From Escherichia coli (GTDB lineage: Bacteria; Pseudomonadota; Gammaproteobacteria; Enterobacterales; Enterobacteriaceae), in the NCBI RefSeq assembly GCF_003334785.1, contig NZ_QOWV01000002.1: DNA of 64,000 nt; one strand, written 5' to 3'. Made by a program: the position numbers and the translations under genes. The notes under the pieces were generated by a model, which saw only the letters and a list, made by a program, of their open reading frames with translations, was not told the DNA's origin and did not search any database. Shown in pieces: positions 32,884 through 34,593 of this stretch (position 1 is its first letter; each line of letters opens with the position of its first letter).

Positions 32884-33030
32884 ATGAGCAAGCAAGTAAC
32901 ACTCATGACTGATGCGATTCCTTATCAGGAGTTCGCAAAACTAATAGGAAAATCGACATGAAGTGGTTTACTGAATTTGGCCACCTGAACAGAGGTGATA
33001 TGCTCACCTCAGAACAACACAGGTGCCATA

Positions 33031-33333
33031 ATGAAAAAAAGAAATTTCAGCGCAGAGTTTAAACGCGAATCCGCTCAACTGGTCGTTGACCAGAATTACA
33101 CCGTGGCAGATGCAGCCAGCGCTATGGATGTCGGCCTTTCCACAATGACGCGATGGGTGAAACAATTACGTGATGAGCGGCAGGGAAAAACACCAAAAGC
33201 CTCCCCCATTACCCCGGAACAAATTGAAATCCGTGAGCTCAGGAAAAAGCTACAACGTATTGAAATGGAAAATGAAATATTAAAAAAGGCTACCGCGCTC
33301 TTGATGTCAGACTCCCTGAACAGTTCTCGATAA
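33031..33333 (+). CDS. IS3-family transposase OrfA (HTH)
   Basis: [91 protein letters not shown]. Confidence 0.9.
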
Positions 33334-33359
33334 TCGGGAAACTCAGGGCGCGTTATCCT

Positions 33360-34178
33360 GTGGCCACTCTCTGCCATGTGTTCGGGGTCCATCGCAGCAG
33401 CTACAAATACTGGAAAAACCGTCCTGAAAAGCCAGACGGCAGACGGGCTGTATTACGCAGCCAGGTACTTGAACTGCATGGCATCAGCCACGGCTCTGCC
33501 GGAGCAAGAAGCATCGCCACAATGGCAACCCAGAGAGGCTACCAGATGGGGCGCTGGCTTGCTGGCAGACTCATGAAAGAGCTGGGGCTGGTCAGCTGTC
33601 AGCAGCCGACTTACCGGTATAAACGTGGTGGTCATGAACATGTTGCTATCCCTAACTACCTTGAACGGCAGTTCGCCGTGACCGAGCCAAATCAGGTGTG
33701 GTGCGGTGATGTGACCTATATCTGGACAGGTAAGCGCTGGGCGTACCTCGCCGTTGTTCTCGACCTGTTCGCAAGAAAACCAGTGGGCTGGGCCATGTCG
33801 TTCTCGCCGGACAGCAGGCTTACCATGAAAGCACTGGAAATGGCATGGGAAACCCGTGGTAAGCCCGTCGGGGTGATGTTCCACAGCGATCAAGGCAGTC
33901 ATTATACGAGCAGGCAGTTCCGGCAGTTACTGTGGAGATACCGGATCAGGCAGAGTATGAGTCGGCGTGGAAACTGCTGGGATAACAGCCCAATGGAGCG
34001 CTTCTTCAGGAGTCTGAAGAACGAATGGGTGCCGGCGACGGGCTATGTAAGCTTCAGCGATGCAGCTCACGCAATAACGGACTATATCGTTGGATATTAC
34101 AGCGCACTAAGACCGCACGAATATAATGGTGGGTTACCACCAAACGAATCGGAAAATCGATACTGGAAAAAACTCTAA
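33360..34178 (+). CDS. IS3-family transposase OrfB (DDE catalytic core), expressed as an OrfAB fusion by -1 frameshift
   Basis: 272-aa ORF in the -1 frame relative to orfA, with DDE/integrase-core-like motifs; slippery A AAA AAG at 33282-33288. Confidence 0.9.
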
Positions 34179-34398
34179 CTCGGTGGCCAGTTTTTGTTGA
34201 CCACTTCAACAGGAGCGGTTCGTCGGATGATCGATAAAGGAAAGCTGCCTGTAATTGATATGACCGATCCACAATCAGCTTCAGGTCGTGCAGGTGAATA
34301 TTGGGTATACCTTCCGGCATGGAATAACGGACTAAAACTGGCTTATGAAAGCCGCCCTAAAGAGATTCGTGACGGCTGGTTGATGTGGTTAGGTCTCG

Positions 34399-34593
34399 GT
34401 GAACCACGTTAAGGAGAACCGTATGAATGAGCCTCGTTGTATTGCTCAGTTACTGCGTAACGAAAGCCCCAGGGCGATTGACTTCACCATCACCCACGGT
34501 AAGGGGCGTAAGGGAATCATTATCCGCACCAAAAAACAGAGTCCGTTAAAAAAGGCTCTGACCTTTCTGAAAAGCCGGAGGGTATGGAAATGA
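34399..34593 (+). CDS. small hypothetical ORF between cox and B (P2 orf78 position)
   Basis: 64-aa ORF overlapping the cox 3' end and the B start; no independent support. Confidence 0.3.
   Translation: MNHVKENRMNEPRCIAQLLRNESPRAIDFTITHGKGRKGIIIRTKKQSPLKKALTFLKSRRVWK

Follow-up and report, generated by a model that had tools for sequence, protein, structure and literature searches.

The P2 prophage in the window

The window, by which we mean the whole 64-kb stretch of DNA that was analysed, contains a P2 prophage at 31235-61615. These limits come from BLAST of the window against P2, gene-by-gene tblastn and the att cores. The prophage sits between yegR and trhP/yegQ, and its features outside the interrupted cox gene include the following:

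31235-31261: attL core, 27 nt, AAAAAATAAGCCCGTGTAAGGGAGATT
31341-32354, minus strand: int, 337 aa, 99.7% identical to P2 Int
32470-32769, minus strand: immunity repressor gene C, 99 aa, 100% identical to P2 C
32763-32791, plus strand: early promoter Pe (TTGACA-17-TAGTAT), intact and identical to P2
38816-39577, minus strand: tin, intact, 99.2% amino acid identity to P2 Tin
39752-41512, minus strand: old, intact, 100% amino acid identity to P2 Old
47652-47657: deletion junction, at which P2 positions 5950-8942 (2993 bp) are missing
51509-52645: a shorter tail fibre gene
52647-53087: the assembly gene of that fibre
53059-54203, minus strand: inverted alternative cassette of fibre tip and assembly gene
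54225-54824: serine DNA invertase (phrog_125, E = 1.5e-101)
61589-61615: attR core, the identical 27 nt, overlapping the 3' end of the cyaR sRNA gene

Most of the prophage genes are in P2 order and have 97-100% amino acid identity to their P2 counterparts. By tblastn against P2, orf78, B, A, the head and tail genes (Q-M, V-J and FI-D) and ogr are full length. Pe/Pc and the operators are 100% identical to P2 at the nucleotide level, and the Cox-binding arm is intact. A functional P2 carries the full set of essential genes, and this prophage does not: it lacks L, X, Y, K, lysA, lysB, lysC and R, and has a truncated S and an interrupted cox.

Three genes diverge from P2 far more than their neighbours (97-100%): orf30 (48147-48932, 87.7% amino acid identity), orf81 (35378-35677, 88%) and I (50901-51425, 82%). 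These homologues indicate putative local mosaic exchange. The H-G-fun(Z) segment of P2 has been swapped out at 51337-54804, and the fibre cassette and invertase found there resemble the host-range switch of the Mu G and P1 C segments. A search for crossover repeats for the tail-fibre invertase found none of 18 nt or more.

At the right-hand end, the attR core contains the 3' end of the CyaR/RyeE sRNA gene (61592-61677, minus strand; Rfam RF00112, 100.7 bits), so the P2 att core rebuilds the end of cyaR. The window also contains two ordinary host features. One is a TPP riboswitch at 14896-14992, upstream of a pair of ORFs (15027-16612) which we take to be thiM/thiD-like, and the other is a naRNA4 (REP-type) element at 22847-22917, upstream of the gat operon.

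An insertion sequence divides cox

Downstream of Pe, the cox gene is split by an insertion sequence (IS). The parts are, in order of position:

32884-32958, plus strand: cox 5' fragment, codons 1-25, MSKQVTLMTDAIPYQEFAKLIGKST, with 25/25 amino acids identical to P2 Cox
32956-32958: left copy of the target-site duplication, ACA (the Thr25 codon), where P2 has a single ACA
32959-34208, plus strand: ISEc52 (IS3 family, a close relative of IS911), 1250 bp, oriented as cox
32959-32985, plus strand: left inverted repeat (IRL), TGAAGTGG...
33031-33333, plus strand: orfA, 100 aa, the HTH/leucine-zipper regulatory protein of IS3-type elements
33031-34178, plus strand: orfAB transposase, 382 aa, via a -1 frameshift
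33282-33288, plus strand: slippery heptamer A AAA AAG for programmed -1 frameshifting
34182-34208, plus strand: right inverted repeat (IRR), ...CCACTTCA
34209-34211: right copy of the target-site duplication, ACA
34212-34412, plus strand: cox 3' fragment, codons 26-91 and stop, with neither a promoter nor a start codon of its own

The gene starts with an ATG at 32884 and reads MSKQVTLMTDAIPYQEFAKLIGKST to 32958, after which the first three bases of the IS form a TGA stop codon. The cox frame picks up again at the GGA at 34212 (G26), reads GAVRRMIDKGKLPVID... and ends with the TAA at 34410-34412. The split point, from scripted boundaries, is thus between codons 25 and 26. Excising 32959-34211 (1253 bp, i.e., the IS plus one ACA) restores a 91-codon cox ORF. 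The rejoined 988-bp segment (32460-32958 plus 34212-34700), which covers C, Pe/Pc, cox, orf78 and B, matches phage P2 (AF063097.1, 25581-26568) at 988/988 positions and is also 100% identical to many E. coli P2 prophages. The rebuilt Cox is identical at 91/91 residues to the crystallised P2 Cox (PDB 4LHF). On these comparisons, the match of the rebuilt cox to P2 is well beyond chance. The second ACA can be read as a true target-site duplication because P2 has only one ACA at this site.

The first-pass annotation of this DNA had cox reading to 32958 and continuing past the IS in the same frame, which the 91-aa ORF and the 988/988 match to P2 bear out. Two of its measurements need correcting: it gave the IS as 1258 bp, where the boundaries give exactly 1250 bp, and it had cox resume at 34217, where a join breaks the frame, in place of 34212.

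Identity of the element

The element has 5'-TG...CA-3' tips and 27-nt imperfect terminal inverted repeats, which are complementary at 21/27 positions. Its orfB is in the -1 frame relative to orfA, and a branched stem-loop is predicted at 33287-33359 (fold z = -2.1), just past the slippery site on its 3' side, where elements of this group are expected to have one. The OrfAB fusion scores 380.6 bits (cutoff 160) against the NCBIfam model for IS3 family transposases (NF033516), spanning profile positions 1-368 of 369. The hallmarks of the IS3 family are present: TG...CA inverted repeats, orfA and orfB with A AAA AAG (frameshift predicted) and a target-site duplication in the 3-4 bp range.

For the name, we compared the element with annotated copies. 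It is identical at 1250/1250 nucleotides to six PGAP records for ‘IS3-like element ISEc52 family transposase’, from E. coli chromosomes and plasmids, where ISEc52 is the ISfinder name as used in NCBI PGAP annotation. Against full-length copies annotated as IS911, e.g., in BL21(DE3), nucleotide identity is 93.8-94.1%. By ISfinder convention, two elements need roughly 95% or more nucleotide identity to share a name, and we rejected IS911 proper as the identity because 93.8-94.1% is below that level. By nucleotide identity, the element is ISEc52, and ‘IS911-like’ is accurate at the family level where ‘IS911’ is not. The earlier description, an IS911-like element in cox with an ACA duplication, therefore holds for the insertion, the family and the 3-bp duplication but not for the name.

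In the ten other genomic copies of ISEc52 that we looked at, PGAP labels every transposase a ‘frameshifted’ pseudogene. This label is an annotation artefact and not a sign of decay, because the ‘frameshift’ is the programmed -1 site.

ISEc52, an IS3 family member whose nearest named relative is IS911, moves by copy-out/paste-in. The 64-kb window contains no second copy. Among the ten other copies with flanks, 3- or 4-bp duplications are present at 5/10 and there is no duplication at the other 5/10. Since half of the other copies carry a duplication of 3-4 bp, one of 3 bp is what a fresh ISEc52 insertion typically has, and the copies with none suggest later IS-mediated rearrangements.

The left flank in cox resembles part of the element. 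Positions 32938-32956, which end two bases before the insertion point, match 34142-34160 (IS positions 1184-1202) at 17/19 bases, and no shuffled cox left flank (0/200) reached a 17/19 match to the IS. A second, weaker match to the IS (81%) begins 14 nt into the right flank. We considered whether ISEc52 chose the cox site by its likeness to subterminal IS sequence and rejected this, since none of the ten other ISEc52 sites has comparable target-IS homology (best 12-15/19). The likeness in cox is probably a coincidence.

What remains of Cox

P2 Cox can be recognised by its identity to the P2 protein and by the place of its gene, which opens the Pe operon and diverges from C; the rebuilt ORF has both. 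What the locus lacks is an uninterrupted coding sequence for the winged-helix and oligomerisation domains, as there is a stop after codon 25. Read codon by codon, cox::ISEc52 is a null allele from which only residues 1-25 can be made.

The fold of Cox is beta1-alpha1-turn-alpha2-beta2-loop-beta3-alpha3-alpha4, and T25/G26 are situated where the chain enters the DNA-binding helix alpha2, the helix with R29 and R30 (PMC3936717). The 25-residue peptide comprises strand beta1 and helix alpha1 only, so it lacks helix alpha2 and the wing as well as the C-terminal helices for oligomerisation. Essential residues include R51 in the wing and R73, R78, W81 and W84 in the C-terminal part, and a stop at codon 70 already abolishes function (PMC3936717).

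An ORF runs from a TTG at 34194, inside IRR, to 34412, in frame with cox codons 26-91 and with a GGTGG 7 nt upstream. It could encode six IS-derived residues followed by Cox 26-91, and nothing indicates expression or function. Against the null reading, it could in principle yield a Cox 26-91 fragment.

The L-S deletion

The 2993-bp deletion takes genes for lysis and for head/tail completion, namely L, X, Y (holin), K (endolysin), lysA, lysB, lysC, R and codons 1-9 of S. With everything from L to the start of S gone, neither host lysis nor the assembly of finished virions is possible for this prophage, with or without a working cox.

The deletion junction is present in one of 5426 complete E. 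coli genomes, that of IAL7250 (NZ_CM130729.1), and there it is identical to the nucleotide. The IAL7250 copy lies around position 11190 in the segment taken from the start of the NZ_CM130729.1 record. This prophage occupies the same site (yegR / trhP-yegQ) and shares the L-S deletion junction, but its cox is intact and its immunity region is different, with 96-98% identity where the two prophages can be aligned. It also carries ParB-like and Dam methylase cargo in place of tin and old and has lost most of its tail genes.

Since IAL7250 shares the deletion junction yet has an intact cox, parsimony puts the deletion before the IS. The L-S deletion is thus probably older than cox::ISEc52, i.e., the IS would have struck an already defective prophage. 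This order depends on one comparison strain whose prophage is a mosaic relative, and the deletion could have spread by recombination.

The NZ_CM130729.1 and NZ_AP027595.1 records, both of complete genomes, begin exactly where the P2 replication gene A begins. Both assemblies were apparently rotated to the start of a prophage ‘replication’ gene instead of dnaA.

Age and distribution of the insertion

The left cox::ISEc52 junction gave no match covering at least 80% of the junction query in the 5426 complete E. coli genomes. Exact searches with 38 nt across the junction found no match in GTDB representative genomes and none in JGI metagenomes. The best match to the host flanks is E. coli LR-64-2 (99.9%), whose own P2-like prophage, at the same site, is complete and retains an undamaged cox.

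Taken together, the 100% identity of the IS to other copies, the intact target-site duplication, the flanks that are 100% P2 and the absence of the junction elsewhere mean that cox::ISEc52 is, as dated by these matches, a recent and private event. The first-pass annotation had called the insertion fairly recent, and the perfect identity of the IS and P2 flanks, with the junction in 0/5426 complete E. coli genomes, agrees with this.

Another IS-interrupted cox does exist. E. coli B1.H1.1 (NZ_CP146571.1, 4471760-4474124) has an IS1 within a P2-type cox at about codon 53. Both the element (IS1) and its position differ from ours, so the B1.H1.1 insertion is an independent event. Among the matches listed, 397 genomes have the region at 80% coverage or more, and IS insertions in cox number two. 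A literature search on IS-disrupted P2 cox found nothing specific.

Predicted consequences

Cox represses Pc, acts as the excision directionality factor and activates P4 PLL (PMC3936717). Without it, Int and IHF would be unable to run excisive recombination, despite an intact int, undamaged attL and attR and an intact Cox-binding arm. Pc would no longer be shut off, fixing the C-ON (lysogenic) state, and the constitutively expressed lysogenic-conversion genes old and tin, which have their own promoter according to the P2 annotation, would stay in place. On this basis, neither excision nor exit from the repressed state is expected of the prophage, and this loss of excision and switching follows soundly from the two roles of Cox, directionality factor and Pc repressor (PMC3936717). 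P2 prophages defective in cox release no phage (PMC3936717).

Cox could, however, come in trans from another P2-like prophage outside the window, if the genome has one: the Cox of P2 Hy dis is reported to complement a P2 cox3 prophage (PMC3936717).

The insertion puts 1.25 kb more between Pe and the early replication operon (orf78, B, orf80-83, A), and transcripts from Pe would have to run through the IS to get there. On the cox strand, no intrinsic terminators are predicted inside the IS. Polarity on orf78-B-A is thus uncertain, as no terminator is predicted between Pe and the operon.

These considerations qualify two earlier suggestions. That the insertion should lock the prophage in place is a sound prediction, given the roles of Cox and the intact int and att sites, but the prophage had already lost L to S. 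That it stabilises a defence-expressing state is right in that old and tin are intact, but there is no evidence of adaptive ‘stabilisation’. An excision assay after induction had also been proposed. P2 is not known to be SOS-inducible, so this would be a weak test.

Explanations for the insertion

We consider it very likely that ISEc52 transposed into cox of the P2 prophage at the cyaR (yegR-yegQ) site as a later, private and probably neutral grounding step. Transposition would have duplicated the 3-bp ACA target. The IS would not be the event that disabled the prophage but a further step of decay, following the L-S deletion.

IS copies are classic breakpoints in short-read assemblies, so one might ask whether mis-joined, repeat-ended contigs put an IS copy into cox. 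Such an artefact is close to negligible in probability, because a mis-join would not leave a second ACA behind. The perfect target-site duplication, the complete IS ends and the recovery of 988 bp of P2 without one mismatch are what true transposition produces. Hardly less improbable is an activating insertion, in which an outward promoter in IRR would drive orf78-B-A or a truncated Cox independently of C. In IS911, a TTGACC hexamer is part of the junction promoter, and IRR here has an outward-facing TTGACC (34196-34201) that could serve as a -35 box, as well as the TTG 34194 ORF in frame with cox codons 26-91. However, a promoter scan finds no sigma-70-like site across the IRR-cox junction (the only plus-strand sites are Pe and 34673-34700), and the hexamers 16-18 nt past TTGACC (TTCGTC, TCGTCG and CGTCGG) are far from TATAAT. 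A Cox without beta1 and alpha1 of its winged helix would, moreover, probably not fold.

Adaptive domestication is a different matter, since it accepts the transposition and the loss of Cox and differs over selection: the knockout would have been favoured for tying down a prophage that bears the defence genes old and tin, and for sparing the cell whatever cost was left from spontaneous entry into a lytic programme that the deletion renders abortive. In line with this, cox is lost but both defence genes are whole, int, C and the att sites have survived undamaged, the independent IS1 insertion in the cox of B1.H1.1 hints at recurrence, and the route is described in the ‘grounded prophage’ literature (PMC6379469). 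We nevertheless judge it unlikely. The allele is single and private, being absent from 5426 genomes, with no sign of spread or selection. Its IS is 100% identical to source copies, which leaves very little time for selection. As for recurrence, two IS insertions among 397 genomes (among the matches listed) may be no more than chance would give. We are a shade more sceptical still of the broader idea that cox is a recurrent, selected IS target whose loss grounds P2-type prophages with old and tin kept, cox::IS1 being the second instance. If it were true, cox loss would be the cheapest form of grounding, since cox alone couples excision to the lytic switch.

Annotation of the locus

The label we recommend for this locus is that of a defective P2 prophage which carries the cox::ISEc52 allele and has lost the genes from L into the start of S. 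Such a prophage is predicted to be unable to excise, lyse the cell or act as a P4 helper, while keeping intact old and tin anti-phage genes. The private cox::ISEc52 junction could be used as a strain-specific marker. Beyond annotation, the locus adds little: it is one more data point for the known decay of prophages by IS insertion and deletion.

Comparison with known systems

All components of this locus are already known, i.e., ISEc52, P2 cox, the cox-defective phenotype and prophage grounding. The ‘grounding’ of prophages by IS insertion and deletion has been covered in a review (PMC6379469), and cox::ISEc52 is an ordinary case of prophage decay.

Other ISEc52 copies agree with the element in length, inverted repeats, orfA/orfAB layout and A6G frameshift site; only the insertion site differs. 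Relative to IS911, it has the same length class, TGAAGTGG...CCACTTCA ends, arrangement of OrfA, A AAA AAG and OrfAB, and 3-bp target duplication, but about 6% nucleotide divergence and a separate catalogue name.

The cox::IS1 allele of B1.H1.1 involves the same P2-type cox, likewise interrupted by an IS and with flanks that are 100% identical. The classical P2 cox mutants (cox3; strain C-6005, PMC3936717) also combine loss of Cox with an integrated P2 in which int and C are intact, and these cox-defective prophages have no spontaneous phage release and no excision. The classical alleles, however, are point mutations in an otherwise complete phage, whereas here cox is interrupted by an IS and the genes from L to S are missing.
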